From contig CADBSF010000023.1 of NCBI GenBank assembly GCA_902797265.1, positions 1 to 57,175 of the forward strand: DNA of 57,175 nt, read 5' to 3'. This document shows positions 20,536-53,386 of the stretch, piece by piece. The position numbers were made by a program, and so were the translations under genes. The DNA comes from an uncultured Erysipelotrichaceae bacterium (GTDB lineage: Bacteria > Bacillota_I > Bacilli_A > RF39 > UBA660). The notes below the pieces were generated by a model. That model saw nothing but the letters and a program-made list of their open reading frames with translations. It did no database searches and was not told the origin of the DNA. The stretch's first letter is position 1. Every line of letters starts with the position of its first letter.

Positions 20536-21783
20536 TTATTTAATGGTATAAGGTTCTTCTTCCGTACCTTTACCACTAGCATATTTAACACTAGATCCTA
20601 ATAAGATAACAGGTCGTACATAAGAGTAATTTCCACAACTATCAATACCAACAGAGCCTCCACCTATTACATAAAAGACACTATAAGAATTCTCTGTACT
20701 TGGTGTTGCTAACCACCAATCCGTTTTTGATACTAAGTAATTGTAATTCTTACATGATTTTGTTGTAGAAGATTTACAATTTGGATCAATACTGGCATAT
20801 AAATAATCTGATAAAGTTAGTAATCCTATTTTTTGATTTTTATATTTTGTTTTACATTCTACAGAATTATCTTTTGATTCATCAGTTTTGTCTCTTTTTC
20901 CAACACATAAATCCATTGCAACCATTCTTGCTTTATCATGAGTGGTTAAAATATCTTCATTATCTTTTTTATTAGGATTTGTATAAATCTTATCTAAATA
21001 CTCTCTTATTCTACTAGTATTGAATTCATTAATACCTGAGCTATAAGAACTATCATCATTATAACGATTATCCCATTCGACAGAATATTCTAAAGTATTA
21101 TCAAGAATTAACATCACTTGATTATTTGAATCAATCTTAACAATTCTCCATAAACTATTATCTAATTGTACGTAATTATTTAAAGTTTCTCCTCTAAAAG
21201 AATATCCTCCTTTATAGGAATATAATCCATATCCACTGGTTACAACAGGATTATCTTCTTGAATCTTTCGATATAGTTCAACAGTAACATAACTATCTCC
21301 ACAATTTAAATAAGGTAAATATAAATATTCTGTTCCACTTTTTTCTACTCTGACAGTACCAGAACATACAACGCCTTTTTTTGTATAATAAGATAAATCT
21401 TTCATCTTACCAGCAGCAACTAAATTACTAGAATCAATTTCTACGATATCTCCATCATTTACTGGTAAACTAGTTGGATAGTCTTTAAAATAACTCTTAG
21501 CAGCATTTTCCATAATCGTTTCTATTTTTTCATAAGAATAACTTTTTCCATTTAATAATGAGAATAAATAAAGAAGAAGAAATAATCCAAAAACTACTCC
21601 AATTATAATTCCCATAAAACGAAACATTCTTTTCTTAGCTTCTAATTCTAATTCTTTTTCACTCTTGTCGTCATCATCATTATTGTTATCATTGAAATCC
21701 ATTTCATCTTCATCTAGTATTTCATCATTGTCTTCATCTTTTTTCTTTGGTTTTTTTACCAAATTAAAATTCATCATCATCAT
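20536..21783 (-). CDS. membrane-anchored surface protein with C-terminal 'VRP...GKGTxExPY' module (paralog of 43638..45425 and 50002..51825)
   Basis: Acidic cytoplasmic N-terminus (DEDNDEILDEDEMDFNDNNNDDDD) and one TM helix. The ectodomain ends ...YVRPVILLGSSVKYASGKGTEEEPYTIK, matching the C-terminal ends of the two larger paralogs. Confidence 0.55.
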   Translation of the reverse strand: MMMMNFNLVKKPKKKDEDNDEILDEDEMDFNDNNNDDDDKSEKELELEAKKRMFRFMGIIIGVVFGLFLLLYLFSLLNGKSYSYEKIETIMENAAKSYFKDYPTSLPVNDGDIVEIDSSNLVAAGKMKDLSYYTKKGVVCSGTVRVEKSGTEYLYLPYLNCGDSYVTVELYRKIQEDNPVVTSGYGLYSYKGGYSFRGETLNNYVQLDNSLWRIVKIDSNNQVMLILDNTLEYSVEWDNRYNDDSSYSSGINEFNTSRIREYLDKIYTNPNKKDNEDILTTHDKARMVAMDLCVGKRDKTDESKDNSVECKTKYKNQKIGLLTLSDYLYASIDPNCKSSTTKSCKNYNYLVSKTDWWLATPSTENSYSVFYVIGGGSVGIDSCGNYSYVRPVILLGSSVKYASGKGTEEEPYTIK

Positions 21784-21788
21784 CCCTC

Positions 21789-24146
21789 CTAATTATCAAA
21801 AAAGTCATCAAAGAAATCATCATCATTTTCATCTTCTAAATCAATGGAAGTCTCTTGAGAAATCGTAGGTGTAGTAGTATCCTCTTCTAATGTATCAATT
21901 ACTTTTGGAATATTTGAAATAGAATCATCTTTTAATACATCATGAATACTGTTTGTAGTAGTAGGTGTTTCTTCCATAATAGGAGCCATAGAAAATTTTC
22001 TTTGTTCTTCTTCTCTCTTCTTTTGATCTTCTTGATTTCTTCTCTCTTCTGCTTCAATTTCTGCAATTTTAGCATCAATCTTTTTCACTAATTCATCTAC
22101 ATCAAAACCTAAATCATCCATATCATCTGTTTCTTTTGGAAGATAAGGTGCTTCTTTTTTTGGAGAATAATCTTCTATAGGAGAAAAATTAGATTGAGAT
22201 TCCATTTGTCTTTTAAAAGTTTCAAAATCTGGTATTTTAGGAAATTCTTGATTACTAGGATTTTTTCTTTCAACAGGAGTTCTCTTTAGAAAATCAGGAA
22301 TATCATCTTCATCCATATCTCTACTAATTGGTTTAATGCCAGGACTTAGATTAGGTCTAGGTCTATTTCTAGGAATTCCAATAGGAAGTGGTAATTCTTC
22401 TTTACTATCTTCATTACTGGCATTCATCATTTTTAATAATTCTTTTTTCTTTTCACTTTTTACAAATTCTTTAATATCAAAAGTATGTACTTCGTGTTTT
22501 GAACGTGTAGGATACTTAGCAGTCGGATATTTTTCTCCCCAATTTAATTTATAATTAGGAATTACTTTTGTTTTAAATGGTTGTTTTCTCATTCGTAAAA
22601 TAATGACTTCATATTGCTTCATTCTTTGTAAGTCAGATACAGTAACCAATGGTGTAGAAGCTGTCTTATCATCTTTTTTAGATTTTACTTCCCCACACAT
22701 TTTAGAGATTTCTTCTAATGCCTTTAATTCTGTTGTGATTAAGTAAACAATATTTCCACAGTTACCACGGATTGTTTCTGCATCTTCTTTTCCATAAACA
22801 GAATCTAACTGAGCAAAGTTTTGAATAATCATTGTAAAACGTATCTTTCTAGAACGAGCCGCTGTAATCATCGTAGTAACATCTTTTAAAGGAGGCATAT
22901 TAGCAAACTCATCCAATAGGAAGTTTGTTCTAATTGGAAGTTTTCCTCCATGTTTTTGTGCTGTAGAAATTAAAGTTTCATATATTTGCTTTAATAAAAT
23001 GGTTACTAAAGAATGATATGTTTTCTTTTCATCTTGAATGACAATAAATACAGCTGTTGGTTTTTCTCCAATACTTTCTAAATCAATATCTGAGTGACTT
23101 AACATTTCACTTAAATTATCACGTGAAGCAAATAATTTTACTTTTTGTTTAAATACAGATAAAATACTACCCTTAGTTTCTGCTGGAGCCATAATCGTAC
23201 TAGAAGCATTAATTGCAGCAGCACTAGAAGGATCTTTCATAGAGAAGTATTCTTTAATATAGGTAGATCCTGCAAATTTCTCTTCTCCTACTGTTGTCGC
23301 TAGAGAGATGGAATTGATATTGATTTCTTCCTCTTTGGCATCTTCAAATAATCCTAAAGCGACTCCTGAAAAGTAATCTGCAGATGTTTTTTCCCAGAAA
23401 GGATCTGCATTTTTATTTGAATCATCATACAAAATATTTAAAGCTAAGTCATCTAATAACTCAATTGCTTTGTCATGGTTACCTGCTTTATATAATTTAT
23501 AAGGCATACTCATTGGATTCCAAGCATTACCATTTTGTGGATCACGGAAATTAAGAATGAGAATTTGATATCCTCTTCTACGAAGCATTTCCGCATTTCC
23601 TTCATATATTTCACCCTTAGGGTCAGTAATAATCATAGATTCTCTAGCTTTTGCTAAACTATGAACCATAGGATGAATTATACCTTGGGTTTTTCCTGAA
23701 CCAGTTGCACCGATAATTAAAGAATGATATTCTCCATTATCAACCCACATTTCTTTCTCTTTTATGATTAAAGGGATTCCTGCTACTTTAGAATTCTTAG
23801 CTGTAATAGGAACACATTGAAGTTCTTCTTGAATTTCTTTTTCCTTTGCCCAACGTGAATAACCTTTATCTTTTTTAGCAGTAGTTAATCCAAACCCTTT
23901 TTCCCTATCAAAAATCATTGAACTAACACTAGCAAATAAACCTAATAAACATAAGAAATAAATAATGATTGTTGAAAAAATAAAATCAGGTCCAAAAGCT
24001 GGAAATGGATTTAATCCATATAATTGCCCTTCACTAGAAAAAGAATGAATATTCAAAACAGCAATCGCAACAATATATAATAAAACAATCGCAAATACAA
24101 TAAAGATTTTTAAATCATCTGCATCTGCGCGAAATTTAAATTTCAT
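21789..24146 (-). CDS. type IV secretion coupling protein (VirD4/TraG/TraD family ATPase) with long disordered acidic tail
   Basis: Two N-terminal TM helices, Walker A IIGATGSGKTQG and Walker B-type LLDEFANMPPL. The ~240-aa C-terminal P/E/D-rich tail ends DENDDDFFDDFFDN. Confidence 0.8.
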   Translation of the reverse strand: MKFKFRADADDLKIFIVFAIVLLYIVAIAVLNIHSFSSEGQLYGLNPFPAFGPDFIFSTIIIYFLCLLGLFASVSSMIFDREKGFGLTTAKKDKGYSRWAKEKEIQEELQCVPITAKNSKVAGIPLIIKEKEMWVDNGEYHSLIIGATGSGKTQGIIHPMVHSLAKARESMIITDPKGEIYEGNAEMLRRRGYQILILNFRDPQNGNAWNPMSMPYKLYKAGNHDKAIELLDDLALNILYDDSNKNADPFWEKTSADYFSGVALGLFEDAKEEEININSISLATTVGEEKFAGSTYIKEYFSMKDPSSAAAINASSTIMAPAETKGSILSVFKQKVKLFASRDNLSEMLSHSDIDLESIGEKPTAVFIVIQDEKKTYHSLVTILLKQIYETLISTAQKHGGKLPIRTNFLLDEFANMPPLKDVTTMITAARSRKIRFTMIIQNFAQLDSVYGKEDAETIRGNCGNIVYLITTELKALEEISKMCGEVKSKKDDKTASTPLVTVSDLQRMKQYEVIILRMRKQPFKTKVIPNYKLNWGEKYPTAKYPTRSKHEVHTFDIKEFVKSEKKKELLKMMNASNEDSKEELPLPIGIPRNRPRPNLSPGIKPISRDMDEDDIPDFLKRTPVERKNPSNQEFPKIPDFETFKRQMESQSNFSPIEDYSPKKEAPYLPKETDDMDDLGFDVDELVKKIDAKIAEIEAEERRNQEDQKKREEEQRKFSMAPIMEETPTTTNSIHDVLKDDSISNIPKVIDTLEEDTTTPTISQETSIDLEDENDDDFFDDFFDN

Positions 24147-24171: not shown

Positions 24172-24200
24172 ATTATAACTTATCTTTTAAAAACTGTCAT
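24172..24200 (-). promoter_or_regulatory. SigA-type promoter upstream of the coupling-protein gene
   Basis: Minus strand: ATGACA-17 nt-TATAAT in the 57-nt gap. The -35 element lies 3 nt downstream of the stop codon of the previous gene. Confidence 0.45.
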
Positions 24201-24203
24201 TAT

Positions 24204-24986
24204 TTATTCATTAGAAACTAAAATTTTAAACTCATTATCATGGAACTGATATAATCTACGGATTGGAGTCATAACACTATATTTTCCACAATTAAAGATA
24301 AATTCATATTTAGAATCGTTTCCCAAATCAATAAATGCTGTAAAATATGGTTTACATCCATTATAATAATCTTTATCATCGATTTCTTCATAGATAGGAT
24401 ATATCTTTTTATTTTTAACCATAAAAACAAAAGTAAATGTCTTCTCTGAATCATGATCGGTATCAAAAGCATTGGTAACAGCATAAATATCTTCCAAAGT
24501 ATCATCATCATCCATATCAAGAGATATCACATAAGAAGAAGTAAAAGCACTATTTGTAGGAATATTATTTTCTTTTAATACTTCATTAACATATGTCATA
24601 TCAGATATTGTATTCATTGTAAAAGGAAAAATATCTAAGGTATAGTTTGCTTGATAAGCAAAGAAATTTCCTTCTACCATAATAGCATTTTTATCTTTGT
24701 CAAAAGCATACCATCTATCATCCCTCCATAGATAATAGGATCCTACTTTTTCATTATTAGAATAAATATGAAATTTTTTCCAATCATATTCTTTTAATTG
24801 TTCACTATCAGTAAGATTACTCCATTTTTTATTACGATAAACCCAAGTAGTATCATGATCAACTAATAATGTTATTTTTTTTCCTTCTTCTATCATATTT
24901 GGAATTCCTAATGTAAGTAATAATATTATAAAAAGAATTAATATACAAACAATTATTCCAATATATACTTTTTTATTATCATTCAT
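24204..24986 (-). CDS. hypothetical bitopic membrane protein (positional candidate for a VirB8/TcpC-like channel component)
   Basis: AAGGTGGG RBS lies 6 nt before the ATG at 24986 (MNDNKKVYIG...), one nt after the upstream stop. It has one TM helix and a ~220-aa ectodomain with no recognisable motif. Confidence 0.4.
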   Translation of the reverse strand: MNDNKKVYIGIIVCILILFIILLLTLGIPNMIEEGKKITLLVDHDTTWVYRNKKWSNLTDSEQLKEYDWKKFHIYSNNEKVGSYYLWRDDRWYAFDKDKNAIMVEGNFFAYQANYTLDIFPFTMNTISDMTYVNEVLKENNIPTNSAFTSSYVISLDMDDDDTLEDIYAVTNAFDTDHDSEKTFTFVFMVKNKKIYPIYEEIDDKDYYNGCKPYFTAFIDLGNDSKYEFIFNCGKYSVMTPIRRLYQFHDNEFKILVSNE

Positions 24987-24987
24987 A

Positions 24988-27438
24988 TTATCCCACCTTA
25001 AAATATACAATTTGTGTAACTTCTTCCCAGTTATATTGAGCAAACATATTTGTTGATTTACTTCCTGGATCCATCATGTTAACGGTAGTTCCAGAAACAG
25101 AATCCAAAGCAACCCAGTGTTGTCCAGTATATTCTTTTACTTTCACAATAGCATAATATCCTGGTGTTTCTGTCAATTGCTTTAATCGATTAAATTTTTC
25201 TTGTTTGGTTTGACCATTTAAAATATCTTTATCAACATAATGGAAAGTAGGCGCTATTTTAGAAACATTATAATAACTACTAAAAGCTCCTCCAGAATCA
25301 AATCCTCCTCGAGGATTTAGATATTCAACAAATGTTCCAGGATTAAAATTCGATACATTTGTTGGTACTCCACTCTTCGCAATTAATATTGCTATTGAGG
25401 TTGCTAAACAACCAATCTCACGAATCGTTCTACCACTATTTCCTAATACTACATTAACCCAAGGACCTTCATATTGTTTCCAATTCGCATACGCTCCTGT
25501 TGAAACTCCCCCACTAGAACTTGTTGTATCACATTTTTCTGAGGTTGTACAATTACTCTTATAAATATTACTAACTCCTGATGAATTATCTCCTTGATTA
25601 TATGCTTGTAATAAAATCGATTTATAATTTAAACCTTTATTAGCTAACGTCTGAAAAGTATTAGAAACTGACTTATAATTAGTAAATACCACATAACCTT
25701 GTTCATTGGTTAATACTTCTCCTTTTACTTCTTCAATGGCGCTTCTTAAGATTGAATCACTAGGAAGAGGGTCTTTACTCATAGATGTCAATTGATTTTT
25801 TCCACTACGTAGGACATTAGAATTATCTGTATAACATCCTTTCGAAGGATTACAGAATAAAGGATCTGAACTACAAGTAGATACCTCTAATATCCACTTA
25901 CCAGAAGTATCCTTATATAATTTATTATTTGTACTGGTAATAACATTTGGTTTTGCTAAAACATAACTTCTTAATGCAACAAATTGTGCTTTTAAAGCTT
26001 CTTTCGAATTAGTATCATCAAATTCCATATATCCAATTCCTAATAAATAATCTTCAAAAGGAATTAATTCTTCTCCTGATAAAACATTAGCACTAGAACA
26101 TTGATTTAATTGGACATACAAATTAGATATTTCTACTTTTTTTTCAATATTCCCTTTTCCTTTAGAAGTAAATCCTTTTATATTATAAGTACAAACTGTA
26201 CTTTTTGAACAATTATCTTCATCATTTACTTCTTTTCCTATTAAATCATAATAATTATTTACAGACTGAAATACTTCATCAGCAATTGCTTCTCTTCTTA
26301 AAACAGAGGTTTGTGGTAAATATTTTGGAATAATAGAAGCAATTAAATTCTTTCGAAATACATTTTTATCATACTCATATTCATTAAACATACCAGATAC
26401 AATTTCTTGTATAGCAGCAGAATCCATATCATCATAAGTAATCGTTGCTTTATTATTAACTAAAGCATTATAGGTACCAACAACAAGTTCTGGATCAAAT
26501 GGTTTTCCATTATTTGCATAATTCGTACTAATCTCATTTACACGATTTAAAAAGTTTTCTTGGTCTGTTGAAGTAAAATTATAATCAATTCCTCCTGTAA
26601 AATCAATGTTTCCAAAAAAAGAACCTATCCCTAGAAAATCATCAAAACTAGATAAAAATGATCCAACAAAACAAATTAAATAGAGAATAATTAATACCAT
26701 TAGAATAAAAGGGCTCAAAAACAATAGAATATTACGTAGTTTTTTTCCAATAACAGCACTTGTATCAACAGAAGAATCCTCATTATTCTCTTCGTTACTT
26801 TCTTCTCCTCGATTAAAGATACTCTTTCTTTTTTTTCGATTTAATATATTATCAGCTAAAGATTTTTCTGATTTTTTTTCCTCATCTGAAGAAGGAGAAC
26901 CATCCTGTTCTCCTTTATTATCATCTTTTTTATTTAAAATAGCTTGATCTTTTCGAAGTTTTTGTTGTTCATATTGATGCTTATTTCGCATCTCTTGCAT
27001 TCTTTGATCGTCGCTATCATTTCCTCCAACATTTTGATTTGGTCTTTGATAATTTGCTTTTCTTCTACTAAAACGTTTACCAAGCCCACTTTCACTTATT
27101 CTATTGGAAGCTTTTTGAACTTTATTTCCCCCTGGAACTACTTGATTTGCTTTGGTCATTGTTTTTCCAATGGCCTCAGTTGCCTTTCCACCAGTTACTT
27201 TATCAGCAGCTTTAACTCCTGTTCCAATGGCAGCAGCATAAGGATTGGCTGTTTTTGAGGCGACATCAGCAGCAGCACGAACATTATTTGTATTGTTACG
27301 ATTATTTCTCTCATTTTCTGCTTTCTTTCTGTCGGCAAAACTTTCGCTATGAGAATTACCATAATTAGTAGGATTATTACTACTATTAGTATTAGTATTG
27401 GTATTACCACCACTATTACCACTTGCACTTCCTGCCAC
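24988..27438 (-). CDS. T4SS-associated cell-wall hydrolase: cytoplasmic N/T/G-rich region, TM helix, SpoIID-like domain and C-terminal papain-fold (C39-like/CHAP-like) cysteine peptidase
   Basis: GTG start with a GGAGGTGA RBS. TM helix ILLFLSPFILMVLIILYLICFV, SpoIID-type block EALKAQFVALRSYVLA, and C-terminal Cys/His pair in IGCLATSIAILIAKSG ... TGQHWVALDS. Confidence 0.65.
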   Translation of the reverse strand: MAGSASGNSGGNTNTNTNSSNNPTNYGNSHSESFADRKKAENERNNRNNTNNVRAAADVASKTANPYAAAIGTGVKAADKVTGGKATEAIGKTMTKANQVVPGGNKVQKASNRISESGLGKRFSRRKANYQRPNQNVGGNDSDDQRMQEMRNKHQYEQQKLRKDQAILNKKDDNKGEQDGSPSSDEEKKSEKSLADNILNRKKRKSIFNRGEESNEENNEDSSVDTSAVIGKKLRNILLFLSPFILMVLIILYLICFVGSFLSSFDDFLGIGSFFGNIDFTGGIDYNFTSTDQENFLNRVNEISTNYANNGKPFDPELVVGTYNALVNNKATITYDDMDSAAIQEIVSGMFNEYEYDKNVFRKNLIASIIPKYLPQTSVLRREAIADEVFQSVNNYYDLIGKEVNDEDNCSKSTVCTYNIKGFTSKGKGNIEKKVEISNLYVQLNQCSSANVLSGEELIPFEDYLLGIGYMEFDDTNSKEALKAQFVALRSYVLAKPNVITSTNNKLYKDTSGKWILEVSTCSSDPLFCNPSKGCYTDNSNVLRSGKNQLTSMSKDPLPSDSILRSAIEEVKGEVLTNEQGYVVFTNYKSVSNTFQTLANKGLNYKSILLQAYNQGDNSSGVSNIYKSNCTTSEKCDTTSSSGGVSTGAYANWKQYEGPWVNVVLGNSGRTIREIGCLATSIAILIAKSGVPTNVSNFNPGTFVEYLNPRGGFDSGGAFSSYYNVSKIAPTFHYVDKDILNGQTKQEKFNRLKQLTETPGYYAIVKVKEYTGQHWVALDSVSGTTVNMMDPGSKSTNMFAQYNWEEVTQIVYFKVG

Positions 27439-27459: not shown

Positions 27460-29250
27460 TTAGAATCCTCCTCCCATACCAAAGGAATCTAATTCTTCTT
27501 GTGTCACAGCAACATTGATTCTCATTCTTCTATCTCCACATACGAATAATGCTTCTCCTTGAGAATAATGTTTGATACTCTCTTTCTCACTCTCATTTAA
27601 ATCTATCAGTAAAGCTAAATCTTCAACAGCTTGTTTCTTAAGACCCATAACTAAATAATATGAAGAGTTATCAAAGATTGCTTTTCCTTCCGTTATAACT
27701 GCAGGGTCTGAAAAATCACTTGGCTGTTGTGTAATAATGATTGTACCTGTATTATACTTTCTTGCACGTCTTTGAACTTGAGCTAAGAAAGCAGCTCCTA
27801 ATGCATTATTATCTCCTAATAACACATGTGCTTCATCAACCATTAAAATTGTATTTACATTAAAGTCTAGGCATAGACCCCATGCATACTTTAATACATT
27901 AAAGAATAAAGCATTTTTAATAGTAGAATCACTATTCATTAATTCTTTTATATTAAATACCATAAAGTCACTACCTTTTTTAATCGTAGTATGACCATCA
28001 AAATAAAATCTTAATTCATTAACAATAGGACGTATTTTTAACTCTAATTTTTCAACAATCTCTCTTTCTTGAGTCATTTCTGTCATAGATAATAAACGAC
28101 CTTTTATTGTTGCATAAACATCTGAAAACGTTGGAAATTGATTTGATGTAAACTTAGAAAAATCTGTATTAAAATCAATTTCAAAACGTCTATAGGTATC
28201 TTGTACAATTTCAGAAAACATAGCAAGTACACTCTCTTCAATAGAAGGATCATAATACTTCATAAATGCTTTTAAAAATTGTAGAGTTCTAGTTAAAACC
28301 GTATATCCTAGTCCTTGTTTAATTTCTTCTTCATCTGCATCAATTACAATTTCTAGTGGATTAATCATTCCGAATTCTCCACCCTTAGCAATATCTACGG
28401 TATCGCCACCAAAAGCTTGTGTAATTTCTCTAAACTCATCCTCTGGATCAATAATAACAATCTGACAACCATTACGAATATGAGTTCTAAGCAACAATTT
28501 AGCAGCTGTTGACTTACCAGAACCAGAAGTACCTAAAATAATCATATTTGCATTATTTCTATTATTTTCTTTACGAATTTTATATAAAAATTGATTAAAT
28601 AAGATAACTCCTCCAGAAAAATCAACTCCTAATAAAGTAGATAATCCTGGATCTTTGATACTATCAAAGATAAATGGATACATTGCTGATATCGTAACAG
28701 ATGGAATAATGGTACCTATTCTTTGTTCAATATCTTGACTAGGGAAAATCGGTAAAATAGATTTTAAGGCTTTCTCTTGTTCAAAACGTAATGATACAGC
28801 ACGTAATTCCATTGCATCTAAATAGTTTTTAACATTTAATTTTTTTAATTCTAATTCTTCTTTTGTATCAGCAGTAATCATAATATGCAATTGAAAATCA
28901 AAATTTCTAGCTTGCGTTCCAGCAATCATAGAAGTAAAATATTCCAAACTCTCAGCATCTTGTCTAATTCTTTCTCTAACAGTTTGATCTTTTTCATTCT
29001 GATATTGTTCCTTCAATTCAGCTACTTGTTTATTTAACATCTTAACCATTTCTTGATAAGGAACAGGAATATGTTTCGCTACTACTTTTATTCCACTCAT
29101 ATTAGTAAGACTAGATAAATACCCAGGAGAAATATATTTTGGATAAGATACTACTGTTAGTATCGTAGCATATTTATCACTAATAAAGAAATCACTAGGT
29201 GAAAAGTGTAATCCTTTAGGAGCAAGTTGACTTCTTAATCCTGTACTCAT
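27460..29250 (-). CDS. VirB4-family T4SS ATPase, C-terminal part (ATPase domain)
   Basis: Walker A IILGTSGSGKSTAAK and Walker B ILMVDEAHVLL. 596 aa; full-length Gram-positive VirB4 proteins are ~800 aa. Its ATG overlaps the stop of the preceding ORF (ATGA). Confidence 0.85.
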   Translation of the reverse strand: MSTGLRSQLAPKGLHFSPSDFFISDKYATILTVVSYPKYISPGYLSSLTNMSGIKVVAKHIPVPYQEMVKMLNKQVAELKEQYQNEKDQTVRERIRQDAESLEYFTSMIAGTQARNFDFQLHIMITADTKEELELKKLNVKNYLDAMELRAVSLRFEQEKALKSILPIFPSQDIEQRIGTIIPSVTISAMYPFIFDSIKDPGLSTLLGVDFSGGVILFNQFLYKIRKENNRNNANMIILGTSGSGKSTAAKLLLRTHIRNGCQIVIIDPEDEFREITQAFGGDTVDIAKGGEFGMINPLEIVIDADEEEIKQGLGYTVLTRTLQFLKAFMKYYDPSIEESVLAMFSEIVQDTYRRFEIDFNTDFSKFTSNQFPTFSDVYATIKGRLLSMTEMTQEREIVEKLELKIRPIVNELRFYFDGHTTIKKGSDFMVFNIKELMNSDSTIKNALFFNVLKYAWGLCLDFNVNTILMVDEAHVLLGDNNALGAAFLAQVQRRARKYNTGTIIITQQPSDFSDPAVITEGKAIFDNSSYYLVMGLKKQAVEDLALLIDLNESEKESIKHYSQGEALFVCGDRRMRINVAVTQEELDSFGMGGGF

Positions 29251-32714: not shown

Positions 32715-32781
32715 ATTAACACCCATTATCATTATATCATAAGAAAAGAAAAATAAATAAAAAAAAATAGTAAATATCTTA

Positions 32782-43614: not shown

Positions 43615-43637
43615 CAAAACTCCTTTATAATCATGTT

Positions 43638-46302: not shown

Positions 46303-49200
46303 TTAAAATTTCTCACATTCACCGCTACTACGGTTTTTAATATTATTACATTTTAATGCTGCAGAACTTGGATAAATTGATCCGTTATTAGCTAAAATAC
46401 CACCTGTTGCAAATAAGGAACTTCGATAAATATTAACATGATCATTATCTATGATGTTACCATTATATTGACCAATAGAATTACCACTATTTCGAATTTG
46501 ACGAATTGTATTTCGATCAAGTTTGATTTTATAATCCAAGTATTTGTCAGAATAAATATTATAATTGTTCTCCTCTACCCATTTTCTATAAGCAACAGCA
46601 TTTGATATATAACTACTATCCTTCGTACTAGTAGAAAAACTACTCCAGTTAAATGGTACAGGGCTATGAATCTCGTCTGATTTACTAGTTCCTTCCTTAT
46701 CAGGGAACATATTATTTAAGTCTACAGAACGAACTTTATATGTTGGAATATCAGGAATTGTACATTTTTCTTCCTCTATTGAACAAGATGGTAATTTACT
46801 ATAAAGAGAATAGAAACAAGAGATATCTACATTCCAACCAAAATGTCCAAAGTTTCTACTAGTAGCTTTAATATTGTATTTAAGTTCACTTACATCCGTA
46901 GAAGAGAATTCTTCAACTTTATAATTATTACATTTATCACAACTAGAACTATTAACTTTATTGGTAGAATTAGCTGCATAGTTAGAATCATTACCATATA
47001 ACTTCGTATAGTAATATAACCACCATTTTTGATTTACATCCTGAGCATCTCTTGGAACATAGAATTTATGTTTTCTAAATCCCCATGCCTTTCCCGTACT
47101 ATTTGGATTACTATAAGCAAGTTCACCAGTTTTTCCATTTATCCAAGTACCAGGGAATCCCCATTCAGCATGGTACCAATTCGTATCATTATCTACGTTG
47201 TAGCAACCAGCACAACTAATAATAGAGGTATCTTTCCAATTATCAGCTGTAGTAGTACTTCCATTTGCTGGATTATCACATTTTTGTGGATTTTTAAATT
47301 TCAAAACATCAGAAGTTCTAGTATATGGGAAATTAACTGTAAATTCTTGATTAGATTTAGAAGCTAGATAATTAGTGCTAATATTAAAGTAAGCTTCTTC
47401 TGTTTTACAAGTATTAGAATTTCCACATAATCCAAGTGCTCTAACATACGTTTCGTAATTAGCTTTCATATCATTTGCGGTGTCAATAGGATTTATATAA
47501 ATTTTAGAGTCATCCATTGTTTCTCCAGTACATCCATCCCAATGACAGGCAACAGTACAGTCACACTCTGAAGCAATACCAGCCGCTTTTCCAGTATTCT
47601 TAACACATTTTAACTCAGAACGAACATTTCCTTTCATTACATAATATCTTCCAAGTCCAGGACAATACTGGTTTCCAAAATTCCAAACAACATAAACACC
47701 ACTGGCATCTGTATAACGACTATAAGATCCAACCCCATCTGTACTTGCAGGACACCATTTTGTAATTCTACATTTGGTTCCCGCTTTAGAAGTAACTTTA
47801 TTATCACAAGATTCTTTATTATTCTTAACTTTTTCTAAATAATCATCATAAAAACTATTGGCAAGTGATTTAGAAATTTCACTCTTTGTTCCATATACTT
47901 CATTATAACAAGATAAAGAACACTTTTGAGTATACTTTCCACCATCACAATTTTTGATACATTGATCAAATTCTTCATTAGGACCTGCAGTCTCAATCTC
48001 AGCACCCTTAGAATGAACACAAATTGGCGCAGGAGTACAAACTGTTTTATACCTTACTTCAATCTCAGGCTCTTTAATTGGACTAGTAGAATAACAATTA
48101 ACTCTACTGGTCATTTTAACTTTATACTCGAAGCCAAATCCAGCTTTAATTCCAACTGGAGGACCATATTCAACAGTAACAGTCTCAACACATGTTTTAT
48201 TGCATTGTAAGGTAACTGTCTCAGCAGCCGGCCCACCATTATTATGATAATGAAAAGTATAAACTAAAGGTACCCCATTATCATAAATTGGTCCCGTTGT
48301 AGATGATGTCCCTACCATATAACTTTTATTAACATAATAATCAGAAACATCATCTGGTTTTGAAAAATTATAAGGATCACATTTAAATGTCTTTAAATCC
48401 ATCGTTTGTCCTTCAGTTAAATTATACCTATTTTCTGCTGGAGTAGCATTATAAGCATTACAAAATTCATATTCAAAAGAACCAGGTGTATGAGATACTC
48501 CACAATTTATTTGACTAGATTGATTCTTTTTCTTAATTTCTTCTGCTTGTGCTTTTAGAGAATTAATTGCTCCTTTAATTCCTTCCGTTTCAGTATCCCA
48601 TGTAGTAGTCCAAAAATTTCCATCATCTACAAGAGGTTCAAAAGATTCTGCACCAAGAAATACACGTTCATTTGGATTACTTGCACTTCTTAATACAATA
48701 TTATAAGTCGCAATGTCATAACCTCTATTAAACATTATAAATACTTCATCATTTTCAATAGGATCATTATTACTCTTTTTCCTAACTCTATCAGCTGCTA
48801 ACATTTTAATCCAATGTTCTTTTGAAGCATCATTACTAGCCTGAATAATACATCTATCCTGATAATAATTATTATTTTGTGTCCTACAAAGCCAACGATT
48901 GACATCTATTCCTTCGAATTCATAAGCTAGTTTTGCTGAAGTATCCGTTGATTTAGAAACAACTACAACTAATCTTTCAACCACTACCCTTTTCTTAGTA
49001 GTAATTTTAATCCCCATATTTCTTGGAATTGGTTCAGCTTTCGCTTCTAAAGCAGGGACTATGGTATTTTTTAATTCCTCAACATACCCAGGATCAACCC
49101 GTCTCGTATAAGCATTTACAGAAAAAGGAATCATTAGAAAGAAAAGAAAAATTACTATAACCCCTATCTTTTTTAAATTAAATGTTTTCATCATTTTCAT
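46303..49200 (-). CDS. large secreted cysteine-rich protein, unknown family (module copy A)
   Basis: Signal peptide ...IGVIVIFLFFLMIPFSVNA (start may be the ATG at 49194). Shares blocks with 40056..42794: FKCDPY, VEYG.PV..KAG..FEYKVK.TSRVNC, CDGGKY..KCS..CY.EVYG, FPGTW.N.KTGE, KWWLYYY, YNIKAT.R.FG.F.W..DISCFY, YKVRSV.L.N.FP.K.G.SKS, PFNWSS. Confidence 0.65.
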   Translation of the reverse strand: MKMMKTFNLKKIGVIVIFLFFLMIPFSVNAYTRRVDPGYVEELKNTIVPALEAKAEPIPRNMGIKITTKKRVVVERLVVVVSKSTDTSAKLAYEFEGIDVNRWLCRTQNNNYYQDRCIIQASNDASKEHWIKMLAADRVRKKSNNDPIENDEVFIMFNRGYDIATYNIVLRSASNPNERVFLGAESFEPLVDDGNFWTTTWDTETEGIKGAINSLKAQAEEIKKKNQSSQINCGVSHTPGSFEYEFCNAYNATPAENRYNLTEGQTMDLKTFKCDPYNFSKPDDVSDYYVNKSYMVGTSSTTGPIYDNGVPLVYTFHYHNNGGPAAETVTLQCNKTCVETVTVEYGPPVGIKAGFGFEYKVKMTSRVNCYSTSPIKEPEIEVRYKTVCTPAPICVHSKGAEIETAGPNEEFDQCIKNCDGGKYTQKCSLSCYNEVYGTKSEISKSLANSFYDDYLEKVKNNKESCDNKVTSKAGTKCRITKWCPASTDGVGSYSRYTDASGVYVVWNFGNQYCPGLGRYYVMKGNVRSELKCVKNTGKAAGIASECDCTVACHWDGCTGETMDDSKIYINPIDTANDMKANYETYVRALGLCGNSNTCKTEEAYFNISTNYLASKSNQEFTVNFPYTRTSDVLKFKNPQKCDNPANGSTTTADNWKDTSIISCAGCYNVDNDTNWYHAEWGFPGTWINGKTGELAYSNPNSTGKAWGFRKHKFYVPRDAQDVNQKWWLYYYTKLYGNDSNYAANSTNKVNSSSCDKCNNYKVEEFSSTDVSELKYNIKATSRNFGHFGWNVDISCFYSLYSKLPSCSIEEEKCTIPDIPTYKVRSVDLNNMFPDKEGTSKSDEIHSPVPFNWSSFSTSTKDSSYISNAVAYRKWVEENNYNIYSDKYLDYKIKLDRNTIRQIRNSGNSIGQYNGNIIDNDHVNIYRSSLFATGGILANNGSIYPSSAALKCNNIKNRSSGECEKF

Positions 49201-49999
49201 TATCTCCTTTCAAAATAGATAATATTTTATCATAATTACTATTCATAGATACACTATAGCGACTATTTTTTTCCCCTTTTCTAAGTAACCTACCTGTAAC
49301 ATAGAAACTATAATTATCCTCTGCTCCAAAGAAACGTGTACAGGTAAATAAGGTTACATACTTATCCTTTTCATTATAGGAAGTTCTATAATCAAATATA
49401 GAATTCTTCTTCCAAAAGATTATATTCTTTTTTATCTCTTTTTTTGATAGATTACCTTTTCCAACAAAATCATGATATTGATCTTTTTCCATAAAACCAA
49501 CAGATATAATTTTATATAGGTAATCATGATCATTAAATGTTATTTGAATGTATTCATTCTCTTTAGCAAAATCATAATACACAAAACTCATCAACTCTTC
49601 AAATCGATAAAACAGGACAGATCTTAATAATGGTTCACTAGATAAATTAAATATATTATGTCCAGAAATATTAAACTGATTATAGAGTTTAGCTTTCTCA
49701 TGCAAAATCCACACATAATTTTCTTCTGTTGCTGGATAACCATAGTTAGTAATATCTTTTGAAAAAACAATGGGAATATCAAGACTAGTTCCTTGAACTC
49801 TAAGCCAACCAACAGTATCTAAGGAAAGAGTTGAATCAACTTTAACAGAATGAACCTTCTCCACTCTACTAAGAACTTCATAATAATCTTTCCTTTTACT
49901 AAAAAATGGGCTTACAGCAAACAAGAATATTAAAATACAAACTATAACAATATAGAAAAACTTCAAGTCAATTCTTTTTAATAACAACCTAAACCACAC
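49178..49999 (-). CDS. class B sortase-like cysteine transpeptidase (module copy A)
   Basis: TM helix, then TVGWLRVQGTSLDIPIVF, SGHNI, VTLFTCT and TGRLL. The start codon is uncertain (GTG at 49999 or TTG at 49987). Confidence 0.6.
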   Translation of the reverse strand: MWFRLLLKRIDLKFFYIVIVCILIFLFAVSPFFSKRKDYYEVLSRVEKVHSVKVDSTLSLDTVGWLRVQGTSLDIPIVFSKDITNYGYPATEENYVWILHEKAKLYNQFNISGHNIFNLSSEPLLRSVLFYRFEELMSFVYYDFAKENEYIQITFNDHDYLYKIISVGFMEKDQYHDFVGKGNLSKKEIKKNIIFWKKNSIFDYRTSYNEKDKYVTLFTCTRFFGAEDNYSFYVTGRLLRKGEKNSRYSVSMNSNYDKILSILKGDNENDENI

Positions 50000-50001: not shown

Positions 50002-51825
50002 TTATTTACTTAATTTATATGGTTTTTCCAGTGTCCCCTTTCCACTAGAAATAATCACATTATTTTTTAAATAACCAACTACTCTAATACCAGCATCAAT
50101 ATAAGTTGGAACTTCACCATTATATACTACACCAATATCAGTAATATATCCAGTAATTTTTTTAGTTTTTGAAGAATTTAGTAACCAATAAGACCCTCCA
50201 TTATATTTTCTTTGTGGTTGGGCACTAAACAATTCATACATTTCAGGAGCTGATAATAAAACTTTATATTTCTTTTTTTCAACCTCTTCACCATATATAA
50301 TTTTATTTTTATAAATTGGCACTTCAATTTCATGATTTACAAATAAAGAGGTATCAATATAATCAGCTGATTTATTATTAATAAAATGAGCAACACTATT
50401 TTTATCTTTAGGATTATATTCCATTTTTTCACTACCATCATTAACAGTAGTTGTAAATGGACTTCTAGGATTACCAATAGTTGTAACCGATACAACTTTT
50501 GTAGTACCATCACTTAATAAATCTACAATTCTATAAATAGTTCCTTTAATCACTACATACTCACCAATAAATCGATCATGAATTAAAGAAGAATTACTTG
50601 CTTTAGGAGTATCACCTAAATCATATGGATTTTCTACTGTTCCATCTCCACTACTAATTAACAAATCTCCCTTAATCGCAAACATTGGTCTTACTCCATA
50701 ATTATCTGTTTTAGAATAAGGAACATAAATTAATCCATCATACTCTCCCCAATTAACATCACGAACAGCATAAGCATTTTCATCATTTTGGGATGTCGCT
50801 GTCCAAGAAATAGTAGGAGTTTCCATAAAACAAACATCAATAGTTCCTTCTTCTTCATCAACATCTTCTGCCTTATTAATATCAACAACAGAAGGAATAG
50901 TAATTTTCTTCTTACTAGAATAACTACTACAATCTACTAATTCAAAGTAAGGATTTTCTAAAGATGACATATTACAATATTTTTTCTCTACAATATTCTT
51001 TTTAGTAAAATCATTTAACTTACTATAATAATATTCTAACCATTTATCTACTTTAGTATAATTTACATTAGCAATATCTTCATCAGACACTAAAATAATA
51101 TTTTTATCATTATCATATCCATATATTCTAAATAACATATTAGATAATTTAATAAAATTGTTTTGAGGATTTCCCTGATAATTAGTCTTATCTCCTAAAT
51201 CTTTCTTAATGGTATGATATAACTCATGTACAACAGTAACTTTCCTAGTAACTGTATTTTTATTACTCATTTTATCAAATGCTGTATAAGTAATTTGATA
51301 AGTACCTAATTTATTTACATCAACATTTCCTTTAATTACAACATCTTTTATATCTAATTTTCCATCAACACTATCTTTTACACTTTTAACACCAAGTTCT
51401 TTATATTCTTCACCAACATTAATAGTAATCTCATCATCACCATTTAATTTGATAGTAGGTCCAGTATGATCAATATTAGATTTTAAAAGACCACATTCTA
51501 AGTATACATAATACTTATAATCATTATCAACTCTTTTTACCTTTACCCAACTATTTTCTGTAGAACAAGTAGTATTTGTATAAGGTATCTTAATATCTTT
51601 ATCAATAAAAGATTTATGATATAACTCTTTTAAAGTAACAGTCTTTACTCTTTCTCCAGTAGGTAGTTCATTATGAAATACTTCAAAATATCTTTTAGCA
51701 GCTTTTTCTAATCTTTTTTCTCCATTAGAAAATTGAAGCATAGGACTAACTACAATAAAATAGACAATTCCCATTACGATTACAAGGAATATAATTAATT
51801 TTATCTTTTTACTCAATTTCTTCAT
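50002..51825 (-). CDS. N-anchored surface protein: Ig-like (DUF5011-type) domain + two 'GVRP / GxG(T/S)xExPY' modules (module copy A)
   Basis: GAGGAG RBS lies 8 nt before the ATG at 51825. Ig-like block GPTIKLNGDDEITINVGEEYKELGVKSVKDSVDGKLD...LGTYQITYTAFDKMSN...RKVTVV. Module motifs YGVRPMFAI...GDGTVENPYDL and GIRVVGYL...GKGTLEKPYKLSK. Confidence 0.6.
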   Translation of the reverse strand: MKKLSKKIKLIIFLVIVMGIVYFIVVSPMLQFSNGEKRLEKAAKRYFEVFHNELPTGERVKTVTLKELYHKSFIDKDIKIPYTNTTCSTENSWVKVKRVDNDYKYYVYLECGLLKSNIDHTGPTIKLNGDDEITINVGEEYKELGVKSVKDSVDGKLDIKDVVIKGNVDVNKLGTYQITYTAFDKMSNKNTVTRKVTVVHELYHTIKKDLGDKTNYQGNPQNNFIKLSNMLFRIYGYDNDKNIILVSDEDIANVNYTKVDKWLEYYYSKLNDFTKKNIVEKKYCNMSSLENPYFELVDCSSYSSKKKITIPSVVDINKAEDVDEEEGTIDVCFMETPTISWTATSQNDENAYAVRDVNWGEYDGLIYVPYSKTDNYGVRPMFAIKGDLLISSGDGTVENPYDLGDTPKASNSSLIHDRFIGEYVVIKGTIYRIVDLLSDGTTKVVSVTTIGNPRSPFTTTVNDGSEKMEYNPKDKNSVAHFINNKSADYIDTSLFVNHEIEVPIYKNKIIYGEEVEKKKYKVLLSAPEMYELFSAQPQRKYNGGSYWLLNSSKTKKITGYITDIGVVYNGEVPTYIDAGIRVVGYLKNNVIISSGKGTLEKPYKLSK

Positions 51826-53386
51826 CAGTTCCACTCCTCATTATTTGATAAACATATTTTTTCGTACGTAATATATATTCAATATTTATTTCTTGGGCAC
51901 TTTCCATCTCATCTGGTACAAGAGTATAAATATATTTTCCTAAAGCAGTTTTAACAAAAGGATATTTAAACTCTACTTCTTCTTCATTACCTTGACTATC
52001 TATATATTTAATTTTAGCATACTCTTTTGAAATATTAAACATCTTCTTACCTTCTAATTCATCAGAAGAGAAAGGTATTGTTAAAATTCGATAACCATCT
52101 GGAGCAACATAACTAATTTTTTCTACATAACAATTTGTTGTATTACAAGTACGATAACTATATAGAACACCAGTTGAAATATCATATTCTTCAAAAGCTA
52201 CATGTTCTTCCAAATCTTTTATCTGGAAAACCATTTCCTCTCCTTCTTTTATCGTTCCCATATCTTCTATCTTACTGATATCTTTCACTTTTAATTTGAA
52301 TTTTCTTAAATATCCATTATTCTCTTGAAAATAGAAATCAAAGCTATTCTTAGATAAAGAGGCACTTACTTTATAAATAATTATAAAGTTTAAAGTCTCA
52401 TCTCTTTTTATCTCTTTCACATCTTCTAAAGTGTTTCCTAAATCTTGAAAATCTTTTGCATAAGTGTTTCTTGTAGTCGTATAATCATGACTACCACTTT
52501 TTATATGAAACTTCTCCATCTTTAATGTTCTAGGTGCAGCATGATTGGTAATCGAAATATTTGCTATTACAAACTTACTTTTTGGTGTTACAACTTCTCC
52601 TGCATAATTCTTATCTGTCCAATAAACATCATTTACTTTCATTGTATATCCTTCAAAAGAATAATTTTGTCCTTGACGATATACCTTATTCGTTACAAAG
52701 AAAAATATAAAAGAACGATAAGCAATAATAACAATTAAAAGAATTGCAACTGCTCTGCAGATTAGAGTATGCTCCTCATAAAAATATTTAAAATTACGGA
52801 TTGATCTTTTCCAAAAACGACGAAGACTATTTTTATCAAAATCAACACTTACTTCAATTTCTTCTCGATCTTCTTCACTTAATTCAAGAAATTCCTTATC
52901 TGTATTAAAATTGAATTTCTTAATATCAAGTCCAAAGACACGCATTACAAATACCCCAATAGCAGGAAGTTGTAAAATAGAAAATATTAATAATAAATCC
53001 TTTGACATACGTAAATCTGTTGTTTCCATATCAAAAGATAATCCATATTTACGGAAGAAACCACGTATCATATTAAGTATAAATAATACAGCTAAATATT
53101 CTGCTAAAGGAATTAAATATACTTTCCAAGGCTTCTTTTTATATAGTAAAAGAATAATAATCGCAACTGTACCAACTAGAATTAAAAAGATAGAAATCAT
53201 TAATAACGAAGTAATATGATGACTAATTGGATCTTTATAAGAATAATTAGAAGTTCTCATAAAAGCATTTACAAATCTACTAATATCTATTAACATATAT
53301 CCAACATATAAACTAAGTACTAGTAGGAAGATATGTATTTTCTTAAAATTCTTAATCAAAAAAGCATATGGTTTTCTAATTATCAT
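51809..53386 (-). CDS. polytopic membrane protein with extracytoplasmic beta-rich C-terminal domain (first gene of the locus)
   Basis: AAGGAG RBS and ~5 TM helices. The C-terminal domain has a DUF4352-like block (KSKFVIANISITNHAAPRTLKMEKFHIKSG); this domain call is tentative. Confidence 0.5.
   Translation of the reverse strand: MIIRKPYAFLIKNFKKIHIFLLVLSLYVGYMLIDISRFVNAFMRTSNYSYKDPISHHITSLLMISIFLILVGTVAIIILLLYKKKPWKVYLIPLAEYLAVLFILNMIRGFFRKYGLSFDMETTDLRMSKDLLLIFSILQLPAIGVFVMRVFGLDIKKFNFNTDKEFLELSEEDREEIEVSVDFDKNSLRRFWKRSIRNFKYFYEEHTLICRAVAILLIVIIAYRSFIFFFVTNKVYRQGQNYSFEGYTMKVNDVYWTDKNYAGEVVTPKSKFVIANISITNHAAPRTLKMEKFHIKSGSHDYTTTRNTYAKDFQDLGNTLEDVKEIKRDETLNFIIIYKVSASLSKNSFDFYFQENNGYLRKFKLKVKDISKIEDMGTIKEGEEMVFQIKDLEEHVAFEEYDISTGVLYSYRTCNTTNCYVEKISYVAPDGYRILTIPFSSDELEGKKMFNISKEYAKIKYIDSQGNEEEVEFKYPFVKTALGKYIYTLVPDEMESAQEINIEYILRTKKYVYQIMRSGTDEEIE

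Follow-up and report, generated by a model that had tools for sequence, protein, structure and literature searches.

The closest described relatives of the system treated here are the conjugation operons of Gram-positive plasmids. In the paper on pLS20, a plasmid that mates efficiently in liquid, one ATPase is named VirB11, the membrane and small proteins encoded next to it are given as unknown and pilus components are stated to be absent (PMC8557374); a review of the Bacillus cereus group names VirB11 only (PMC9673590). The premise that the type IV secretion systems (T4SSs) of Firmicutes are pilus-less, adopted in an earlier note on the DNA described below, is now being overturned: a December 2025 preprint shows that pCF10 cannot do without its VirB2-like pilins, and most conjugative plasmids of Gram-positive bacteria are predicted there to encode such pilins close to virB6 (bioRxiv 10.64898/2025.12.18.695078). 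Here we describe a locus at positions 20536-53386 of contig CADBSF010000023.1, a stretch of 57,175 nucleotides (the window) from an uncultured bacterium of the order RF39. The locus is very probably a chromosomal, relaxase-free and order-wide conserved derivative of a plasmid-type mating apparatus. The plasmids in question are pLS20-like, pBMB67/pXO1-like and Priestia plasmids, and the relaxase was either lost or never present.

The locus consists of 27 consecutive minus-strand open reading frames (ORFs), here numbered g1 to g27 in the direction of transcription, with short gaps or overlaps at their junctions in the ORF listing of the window; all those that the earlier note had placed there are present. 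They fall into three blocks: a contact block, which evolves fast, a filament engine of the Tad-like type IV kind, and a T4SS channel. RF39 is a widespread gut and rumen order known only from metagenomes, and its highly reduced genomes show numerous auxotrophies (PMC12306168). Candidatus Faecimonas, the GTDB genus CAG-877 of this order, has a 1.4-Mb genome of 28% G+C (PMC8035907). A peptidoglycan wall is predicted for most RF39 species, and the order, in contrast to its sister orders, has retained srtA/B sortases (PMC10868615). Literature searches combining RF39 with T4SS, type IV secretion, pili or Tad returned no description of such a locus, and secretion systems and pili are unmentioned in connection with RF39 in two genomics papers on the order (PMC12306168, PMC10868615).

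Conservation of the locus in RF39

Relatives were sought in one genome per GTDB species with g11, the TadA-family ATPase, as query. At least 539 species representatives encode a relative, and synteny was assessed on the best 80 of these loci by tblastn with all 27 proteins. The best 80 come from metagenome-assembled genomes (MAGs) of uncultured Bacilli, 'Tenericutes' and 'Mycoplasma sp. CAG:877', Candidatus Faecimonas included, and their hosts span human, rodent, rabbit, bird and ruminant guts; the ones examined are Bacilli of the order RF39. The close homologues of g11 number in the thousands and are all metagenomic, the few named ones being labelled 'MAG: Bacilli bacterium'. Five loci (L024, L055, L065, L075 and L083) were deposited as 'uncultured Muribaculaceae bacterium' or 'Acidaminococcus fermentans' and are probably from mislabelled or contaminated bins.

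Gene order and strand are the same in essentially every one of the 80, running greA-g1-[surface protein, sortase, Cys-rich protein, DUF5411 protein]-g10...g23, with greA directly upstream in 46. A second scan, centred on VirD4, found g17...g27-rhodanese-VTT-rmuC-trpS to be colinear in about 25 long metagenome contigs. A search for co-occurrence in relatives had been proposed as a check, and it turns out that the Tad-like and T4SS blocks recur colinearly in about 100 independent contigs, far beyond chance. The flanks of the window locus, greA on one side and genes for a rhodanese, a VTT-domain protein, rmuC and trpS on the other, were correctly read as housekeeping genes, as domain annotation confirms. 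With both flanks conserved together with the locus, which occupies one and the same site between greA and rhodanese/rmuC in all contigs examined, this is vertical inheritance of a chromosomal region and not an integrated element.

Constraint was measured as the median identity of homologues to the window proteins. The motors and core components (VirB4 86%, TadA 80%, TadB/C 78%, pilin 79%, VirD4 73%) reach levels like those of the flanking housekeeping genes (greA 88%, trpS 79%, rmuC 76%). Values are far lower for the exposed components, being 31-33% for the Cys-rich proteins, 39% for the sortases, 40-42% for the pseudopilins, 40% for VirB6, 39% for the hydrolase g24 and 44-46% for the DUF6273 proteins. 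Motors constrained like housekeeping genes, beside exposed parts that diverge fast, are what one would expect of a machine facing variable external partners.

Domains of relaxases, integrases, replication proteins or partition proteins, whose absence had been claimed from the sequence, were found in none of the tested ORFs of the locus or of the 57-kb window, where several ORFs match no family at all. A tblastn search confined to two relaxase families, MOBP2/P3, found no homologues in 2.6 Mb of related neighbourhoods.

The T4SS channel

The T4SS channel comprises two VirB2-like pilins, VirB6, a VirB3-like protein, a split VirB4, a cell-wall hydrolase, a bitopic protein and VirD4, encoded as follows.

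32782..33123, minus strand: g18, VirB2-like T4SS pilin with two transmembrane helices and a charged loop (T4SS_pilin in family)
32262..32846, minus strand: g19, second VirB2-like pilin paralogue, with an N-terminal extension (T4SS_pilin in family)
30108..32246, minus strand: g20, VirB6-like channel protein with a hydrophilic C-terminal extension of about 330 residues (TrbL_4, 31.5 bits, cut-off 27)
29776..30087, minus strand: g21, VirB3/PrgI-like small transmembrane hairpin protein (by size, position and topology only)
29247..29840, minus strand: g22, VirB4 N-terminal domain as a separate ORF (VirB4 model positions 98-276)
27460..29250, minus strand: g23, VirB4 ATPase domain (VirB4 model positions 295-891; TraG P-loop and AAA_10 in Pfam)
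24988..27438, minus strand: g24, VirB1-like cell-wall hydrolase, SpoIID plus a candidate C-terminal Cys/His domain (SpoIID above the Pfam cut-off)
24204..25043, minus strand: g25, bitopic protein at the position of VirB8-like proteins in Gram-positive T4SSs (by position, size and topology)
21789..24146, minus strand: g26, VirD4 coupling protein of the CD1115 family (Pfam T4SS-DNA_transf, 1e-54)

The coupling protein g26, as first proposed, belongs to the VirD4/TraG proteins, scoring 299.5 bits against the NF045973 conju_CD1115 model with its curated cut-off of 250, in addition to its T4SS-DNA_transf match. VirB4 is split over g22 and g23, again as proposed: the two cover successive parts of a single model, spanning together positions 98-891 of the 894-residue NCBIfam VirB4_plasma (1e-101, below the equivalog cut-off). 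This model, the best for g22/g23, represents the family of the Mycoplasma integrative and conjugative element (ICE); those of CD1110, TraC and VirB4_CagE also match. All 69 related loci show the split, the two ORFs overlapping by ATGA or by 1 nt, and it occurs again on pBMB67; a frameshifted VirB4 pseudogene is therefore ruled out. The tail of g26 (residues ~560-785) is of low complexity, disordered and very acidic, ends in DDFFDDFFDN and varies between species, the homologues aligning over the catalytic parts only.

Among the membrane components, the VirB6-like nature of g20 was rightly recognized, TrbL_4 matching above its cut-off. The paralogues g18 and g19 each contain a pair of hydrophobic helices, between which lies a conserved charged loop, SDEKEVKAAQxRLIxR. 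Their reading as VirB2-like holds indirectly, through the 14 of 20 members of the g18/g19 family that match Pfam T4SS_pilin (best E 6e-7). The true start of g19 is probably an internal ATG (MKYKVLL...). In this family a conserved Cys lies on either side of the helix pair, suggestive of a disulfide stapling the ends of the hairpin. The size, transmembrane hairpin and position of g21 agree with the PrgI/VirB3-like label that it had been given, although no Pfam or NCBIfam model matches it; g25 matches nothing in these two collections or among PDB sequences. The hydrolase g24 had been described as a SpoIID protein with a peptidase. Its SpoIID half stands but the peptidase half does not, Pfam showing no peptidase domain and searches of PDB sequences with the whole protein and with the C-terminal domain giving nothing useful. 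Some g24 relatives carry SpoIID together with M23.

A diverged T4SS subgroup (L144, L150, L152, L153, L156, L158, L159, L161 and L162) has VirB4 at 76-78% and VirD4 at 62-73% identity, and in most members a DUF6273 gene precedes the VirB2-like genes or lies between them. L159 is the one of these loci that was annotated: its hydrolase combines SpoIID with Peptidase_M23, and hybrid histidine kinases, an Hpt protein and a response regulator-HD protein are encoded after VirD4. In the set L156-L162, VirD4 is not followed by the rhodanese and rmuC genes.

The Tad-like filament engine

Upstream of the T4SS channel lies a Tad-like type IV filament engine, made up of CpaB, a TadA-family ATPase, two platform proteins, a 51-residue pilin and two pseudopilins; one further gene, g17, follows.

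38702..39508, minus strand: g10, CpaB/RcpC-like protein with SAF and RcpC domains (RcpC 29.1 bits, cut-off 28.8)
37173..38663, minus strand: g11, hexameric ATPase of the TadA/CpaF/VirB11 family (Pfam T2SSE, 1e-27)
36255..37157, minus strand: g12, TadB-like polytopic platform protein (type II secretion system F, T2SS F, family by transitive homology)
35452..36255, minus strand: g13, TadC-like platform protein (by homology to the neighbour of the Priestia T2SS-F protein)
35215..35370, minus strand: g14, pilin-like protein of 51 residues, N-terminus MKAATGELNLTVITLIAI
34734..35201, minus strand: g15, pseudopilin-like protein with a hydrophobic N-terminal helix and a Cys-containing head (by reading of the sequence)
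34259..34714, minus strand: g16, pseudopilin-like paralogue of g15 (43% identity)
33177..34226, minus strand: g17, conserved cytoplasmic protein, no domain assigned

The CpaB-like g10 and the TadA/CpaF ATPase g11, both named as such in the earlier note, are borne out by Pfam RcpC/SAF and T2SSE, respectively. The former also matches TIGR03177 (6e-12) and is 31% identical to a SAF protein of a Priestia plasmid. The latter matches the NCBIfam models of VirB11, of a TadA-family conjugal-transfer-associated ATPase and of FlaI, all under their equivalog cut-offs, and its nearest plasmid relatives are 'CpaF/VirB11 family' proteins. The tail of g11 (residues ~360-496) is of low complexity, rich in Ser, Thr, Asn and Pro, and varies between species; homologues align over the catalytic part only.

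The platform proteins are harder to place. Neither g12 nor g13 matches Pfam, profiles of their families found nothing among PDB sequences, and a Pfam scan of 25 g12 relatives gave no T2SSF match. The domain does appear in one of 18 distant g12 relatives (2e-5), and g12 itself is homologous to a protein that the annotation of a Priestia plasmid assigns to the T2SS F family (6e-7 across PLSDB, 1.5e-13 locally). The TadB/TadC-like reading of the pair is supported only indirectly, through homology to this Priestia protein and its neighbour. The N-terminus MKAATGELNLTVITLIAI of g14 is near-invariant across relatives. By their N-terminal hydrophobic helix only, g15 and g16 are putative pseudopilins. 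The assignment of g17 as TadZ-like failed: Pfam lends it no support, and hhalign against the ParA-like ATPase of pBMB67 gave a probability of 2%, so that homology between these two proteins is not shown.

Relatives on plasmids

The closest plasmid relatives of the window VirB4 (30% identity) are on Bacillus thuringiensis plasmids. On pBMB67 (L164), one set of genes encodes a MobP3 relaxase, VirD4, TrbL, PrgI and a small ORF plus a DUF87 VirB4, and another, Tad-like, set encodes an SLH protein, proteins of 851 and 134 residues, a SAF protein, an AAA ATPase, an ATPase of the T2SS/type IV pilus family, two membrane proteins and small pilin-like proteins. The two blocks lie about 6 kb apart, with a response regulator gene between them. 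Six window proteins match pBMB67, among them g26 (31%, 2e-67), g23 (30%, 6e-84), g10, g11 and g13. A Priestia koreensis plasmid (NZ_CP061869.1, L165) carries VirD4 together with SLH, 993-residue, DUF5411, SAF, hypothetical, CpaF/VirB11, T2SS-F and hypothetical proteins, and here matches are found to g10 (31%), g11 (34%, 3e-53), g12 (1.5e-13) and g13 (1.4e-9). Among plasmid proteins, g11 is best matched by the 'CpaF/VirB11' protein of the pLS20-family plasmid pBamB1895 (L166; 34%, 5e-43), whose operon is arranged in the same way and also has a MobP2 relaxase. On all three plasmids the 'VirB11' gene is followed by genes for two polytopic proteins and small pilin-like ORFs, and on L164 and L165 a SAF/CpaB gene precedes it.

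The composite of Tad-like and T4SS genes, for which a new kind of system had been one of two explanations offered, therefore cannot be new: it exists on pBMB67, on pLS20-family and on Priestia plasmids, on Bacillaceae conjugative replicons with relaxases, the DUF5411 gene and the split VirB4 included. It follows that the 'fusion' is a property of the plasmid family and not an invention of the source genome.

The likenesses extend to gene order. In the pLS20 family, as in RF39, an adhesin and a small protein with an N-terminal anchor come first; an ATPase of the CpaF/VirB11 family, two polytopic proteins and small pilin-like proteins are encoded next and, downstream, VirD4, VirB6, a small ORF plus VirB4, VirB8 and VirB1. 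Unlike the RF39 locus, pLS20 is a plasmid, equipped with a MobP2 relaxase, with regulatory genes and with surface exclusion; its adhesin, Tie, is a thioester protein, and it lacks a sortase, a Cys-rich protein and an annotated CpaB gene. The pBMB67/pXO1-like and Priestia plasmids share the order of the Tad-like block, with a surface (SLH) protein, a protein of 850-990 residues, a small protein, SAF/CpaB, the ATPase, a T2SS-F protein, a second platform protein and small pilin-like genes. The same replicon also has VirD4 on both pBMB67 and Priestia plasmids, and pBMB67 adds TrbL, PrgI and the split VirB4. They differ in their MOBP relaxases, in a T4SS block that comes before the Tad-like block, in the ParA/MinD-type ATPase between CpaB and the ATPase, and in the lack of a sortase. 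Nor is their large protein detectably homologous to the Cys-rich family of RF39, hhalign with the 993-residue Priestia protein giving a probability of 4%.

The contact modules

The contact block is composed of a DUF6273/Ig surface protein, a class-B sortase, a Cys-rich secreted protein of about 950 residues and a DUF5411 pilin-like protein. The module is present twice in the source genome, the copies being old paralogues, 38-74% identical, and once in 62 of 77 related loci. A further DUF6273 gene closes the locus.

50002..51834, minus strand: g2 (module 1), surface protein with an N-terminal anchor, a bacterial Ig-like domain and two GVRP/DUF6273-type repeats (Pfam), its C-terminus ending in SGxGTxxxPYxxK
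49178..49999, minus strand: g3 (module 1), membrane-anchored class B-like sortase, GH...TLFTCT...R (Sortase, E 2e-4)
46303..49200, minus strand: g4 (module 1), secreted Cys-rich protein of 965 residues, unnamed family (38% identical to g8)
45773..46285, minus strand: g5 (module 1), DUF5411 protein with an N-terminal anchor and pilin-like topology (DUF5411, 1e-39), the topology taken from the predicted model of its paralogue g9
43638..45425, minus strand: g6 (module 2), surface protein with an Ig-like domain and DUF6273 (Pfam)
42775..43617, minus strand: g7 (module 2), class B sortase (Sortase 6e-9, above cut-off)
40056..42803, minus strand: g8 (module 2), secreted Cys-rich protein of 915 residues (alignment and predicted model)
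39531..40037, minus strand: g9 (module 2), DUF5411 protein (4e-41)
20536..21783, minus strand: g27, DUF6273 surface protein with an N-terminal anchor, last gene of the locus (Pfam)

The proteins with Ig and 'GVRP' repeats that had been noticed in the sequence (g2, g6 and g27) carry Bact_surface_Ig-like and/or DUF6273 domains by hidden Markov model. The motif SGxGTxxxPYxIK is invariantly placed in the DUF6273 proteins, which end 11-13 residues after it (g2, g6, g27 and homologues L004-L083), and it also closes their internal repeat. Their C-termini lie at window positions 50002-50050 (g2), 43638-43680 (g6) and 20536-20580 (g27).

The sortase-B-like proteins were correctly called, with g7 above the cut-off of the Sortase family and g3 below it, as is the TIGR03064 match of g3. 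The class B sortase structures of Clostridioides difficile and Staphylococcus aureus SrtB are matched by g7 at 1e-8 among PDB sequences, and catalytic-type TLxTC and GH motifs are visible in both proteins. It had been suggested that sortases handle the adhesins. A C-terminal cell-wall sorting signal (motif, hydrophobic segment and basic tail) was found in none of the window ORFs of at least 80 residues, so this suggestion is without basis; the C-termini of g2, g4, g5, g6, g8, g9 and g27 are all hydrophilic.

Some 27 cysteines are conserved in the alignment of the g4/g8 family, which has 295 homologues, nearly all of those listed being without a Pfam domain. In an extracellular protein of an anaerobic bacterium of Gram-positive type, so many would imply numerous disulfides or metal sites. 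The AlphaFold model of g8, of moderate confidence (predicted local distance difference test 74), had no match in PDB or BFVD at E <= 0.001, and the plasmid collection gave none to the sequence. A twin CX3C pair in g8 (C385/C389 and C398/C402; residues 380-407, window ~41583-41666) lies on two predicted antiparallel helices. The Cys-rich protein g4 is a candidate contact or tip adhesin. For DUF5411, the predicted model of g9 has an N-terminal helix of 47 residues followed by a three-stranded sheet, a pilin-like layout with no significant structural match in the PDB, so that 'minor pilin' is a suggestion only.

Transcription units

The following predicted promoters were found.

45468..45495, minus strand: candidate promoter of module 2, TTGACA-16-TGnTACAAT, within the 347-bp gap at 45426-45772
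35401..35429, minus strand: candidate pilin promoter before g14 (at least 10 of 12 consensus positions in 57 of 73 loci)
33146..33174, minus strand: predicted consensus sigma-70 promoter, TTGACA-17-TATAAT (12 of 12), in the 53-bp gap between g17 and g18, before the T4SS block
24172..24200, minus strand: candidate promoter before virD4, g26 (11 of 12, consensus scan)

A sigma-70 site of at least 10 of 12 is present in the g17-g18 gap in 62 of 69 loci, and in the control gap between g9 and g10 in none. With predicted promoters conserved before both the T4SS block and the pilin gene, the locus is probably not a single operon; the Tad-like and T4SS blocks are adjacent and co-oriented but would be separately promoted. 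The 347-bp gap between the contact modules holds two hairpins (one with an A/T-rich stem of about 14 bp, the other CACCGAA...TTCGGTA) and could be a duplication junction or a regulatory leader.

Boundaries and neighbouring genes

Both terminators that had been said to bound the locus are real-looking hairpins, and the first gene behind the upstream one is g1.

53503..53530, minus strand: greA terminator, AT-rich 8-bp hairpin plus T8 by direct reading, upstream boundary
20495..20526, minus strand: terminator after g27, AT-rich 8-bp hairpin plus T8 by direct reading, downstream boundary
51809..53386, minus strand: g1, polytopic membrane protein with about 5 transmembrane segments and an extracellular DUF4352-like domain (DUF4352, E 0.008, below cut-off)

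A consensus terminator scanner misses both hairpins because it demands at least three G-C pairs. The first gene after greA is g1 in all relatives (66 loci, median identity 40%). G+C content is about 28% along the whole window, locus and flanks being alike in composition, and the window contains neither a tRNA gene nor any match to an Rfam family. Outside the locus, the ORFs at 58-1041, 2619-3539, 3585-4016, 3997-5625, 5986-7209, 13970-14977 and 15093-16544 belong to no significant Pfam or NCBIfam family, the sole match of that at 2619-3539 being a weak one to a Leptospira lipoprotein family, far under cut-off. AT skew is strongly negative (-0.25 to -0.33) at 3-6 kb, which suggests an unusual protein composition there.

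Function and alternative explanations

The first of the two explanations offered in the earlier note, a domesticated T4SS, fits a locus that is chromosomal, co-inherited with its flanks, without a detected relaxase and held at housekeeping-level constraint across RF39. As to what the machine does, we tentatively favour contact-dependent transfer from cell to cell of a cargo that serves the bearer, effector proteins or other macromolecules, over self-transfer of an element. Judging from the parts and from the plasmid relatives, the Tad-like fibre would find another cell and pull it close, its tip being possibly the Cys-rich/DUF5411/pseudopilin set; the SpoIID-type hydrolase would open the wall; VirB4 would drive assembly of the VirB2/VirB6 conduit; and VirD4 would recruit the substrate and feed it into the neighbouring cell. 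More speculatively, the cargo might be proteins or other macromolecules that exploit neighbouring gut bacteria, as has been proposed for Patescibacteria. The cargo is held to serve the bearer because donor-side DNA transfer would hardly account for a host-fixed system constrained at housekeeping level, because RF39 is auxotrophic, uncultured and reduced in genome, and because the T4SSs of Patescibacteria set a precedent (PMC12102498).

Several observations weigh against this reading. Both motors belong to conjugative families, VirD4 to CD1115, above the cut-off, and VirB4 closest to the Mycoplasma ICE model, and every characterised relative moves DNA (PMC8557374). Neither an effector candidate nor a secretion signal was identified. 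No A24-type prepilin peptidase (TadV/CpaA) domain was matched inside the locus or elsewhere in the window, and the GxGD motif is absent from g1. The Flp-type processing motif, G/XXXXEY, expected of the 51-residue pilin, is missing from the N-terminus of g14, which lacks an EY motif and matches nothing in Pfam. A relaxase could be encoded elsewhere in RF39 genomes. Finally, the Tad-like and T4SS blocks have separate conserved predicted promoters, so that only the adjacency which they keep, here and on plasmids, speaks for a functional coupling.

The alternative that survives best, though we regard it as rather unlikely, is that the machine still moves DNA, in a host-owned conjugation of chromosomal segments or small elements between RF39 cells with the DNA-processing enzymes encoded elsewhere. 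It would resemble the ICE-dependent chromosomal transfer of mycoplasmas and offset genome decay. The family memberships of VirD4 and VirB4 just given speak for it, as do the conjugative nature of all characterised homologous systems and the relationship of RF39 to Mycoplasmatales (PMC10868615). It is countered by the lack of a relaxase, an oriT-associated gene or a recombinase in the window or, for two MOB families by tblastn, in the 2.6 Mb of neighbourhoods, and by the little direct benefit that donor ability brings to the bearer, a poor fit with order-wide conservation at housekeeping level.

Next, and improbable, is that two independent systems lie side by side: a Tad-like pilus for adhesion to mucus, food particles or the host, and a T4SS that is separate or decaying. 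Other gut bacteria colonise by means of Tad pili alone, and the separate predicted promoters suit this idea. However, the blocks are adjacent and co-oriented in every RF39 locus examined and occur together on unrelated Bacillaceae plasmids, and no genes of the locus are better conserved than those of the T4SS motors, which shows that these are not decaying.

A competence machine is less probable again. Here the Tad-like fibre would capture free DNA, as in Micrococcus and Liberibacter, and the T4SS would import it, as does ComB of Helicobacter. DNA uptake by Tad-like pili is known in some bacteria (PMC8513845, PMC6370729), and auxotrophies such as those of RF39 (PMC12306168) would suit such a habit. 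However, the locus contains no ComEC- or ComEA-like gene, and a hydrolase and adhesin-like proteins suit cell contact better than the capture of free DNA. ComB-type import systems are, moreover, not known to include VirD4, which is conserved here at 73%.

An ordinary ICE or integrated plasmid with its relaxase and integrase just outside the window, as the content of a conjugation module might suggest, is effectively refuted by housekeeping flanks in the same order across the species examined, by uniform composition with no tRNA or repeat boundary, by a Cys-rich protein unmatched on plasmids and by identity levels equal to those of core genes.

A 33-kb machine at a single chromosomal site is probably among the largest investments of RF39 genomes, and its retention there, with the housekeeping-like conservation of its motors, suggests that RF39 probably depends on cell-to-cell contact. 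The locus points to contact that is obligatory, gives a handle for cultivation in co-culture and for imaging, and raises the question of whether contact-dependent lifestyles extend beyond the candidate phyla radiation (CPR, Patescibacteria) and DPANN. A stronger version, which we put forward as unlikely but consequential, is that RF39 is the first contact-dependent lineage in Bacillota, convergent with epibiotic Patescibacteria and exploiting its neighbours with a two-filament organelle made from a conjugation machine. This organelle would have a Tad-like grappling fibre with exchangeable Cys-rich tip modules and a VirD4-fed VirB2/VirB6 conduit; if real, it could explain why abundant RF39 bacteria have never been cultured alone.

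Comparison with known systems

Beyond the plasmids considered above, three systems bear comparison. The transfer locus of the IncI1 plasmid R64 encodes both a T4SS and a separate type IVb thin pilus, which brings cells together in liquid and whose exchangeable PilV tip adhesins set partner specificity. R64 differs in being Gram-negative, in a pilus that is type IVb and not Tad-like, in an adhesin varied by a shufflon, and in being a mobile plasmid with a relaxase.

The Kil system of Myxococcus xanthus also joins a Tad-type pilus with interchangeable minor-pilin tips to a second secretion apparatus, and acts on other bacteria upon contact (PMC12075869). Its tip exchange may parallel the duplicated, fast-evolving contact modules of the RF39 locus. 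The partner apparatus of Kil is a needleless T3SS*, similar to a type III secretion system, not a T4SS, and the organism is a diderm predator.

The T4SSs of Patescibacteria may be likened to the RF39 locus by their features: they are chromosomal, of monoderm MPF_FATA-like origin, mostly relaxase-less, with VirB2-like paralogues, and widespread in a lineage of reduced genomes, and in Saccharimonadia T4SS genes are reported to be essential for epibiotic growth (PMC12102498). The phylum is different, and Tad occurs nowhere in that account.

The RF39 locus is thus of a kind already known, both from conjugation-derived domesticated T4SSs and from plasmid operons containing a 'VirB11' block. What sets it apart is that it is fixed across the whole order, that a single locus holds two filament systems, that a class-B sortase has been added and that its Cys-rich family is unassigned. 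The comparison also illuminates the plasmids themselves, whose type IV-filament module is under-recognised and undescribed in PMC8557374 and PMC9673590. The Tad-like module belongs to the Gram-positive conjugation operon family of pLS20 and pBMB67/pXO1-like plasmids, where it has hitherto been read as a lone "VirB11", and so is relevant to the revision, now under way, of the idea that conjugation in Gram-positive bacteria involves no pili.

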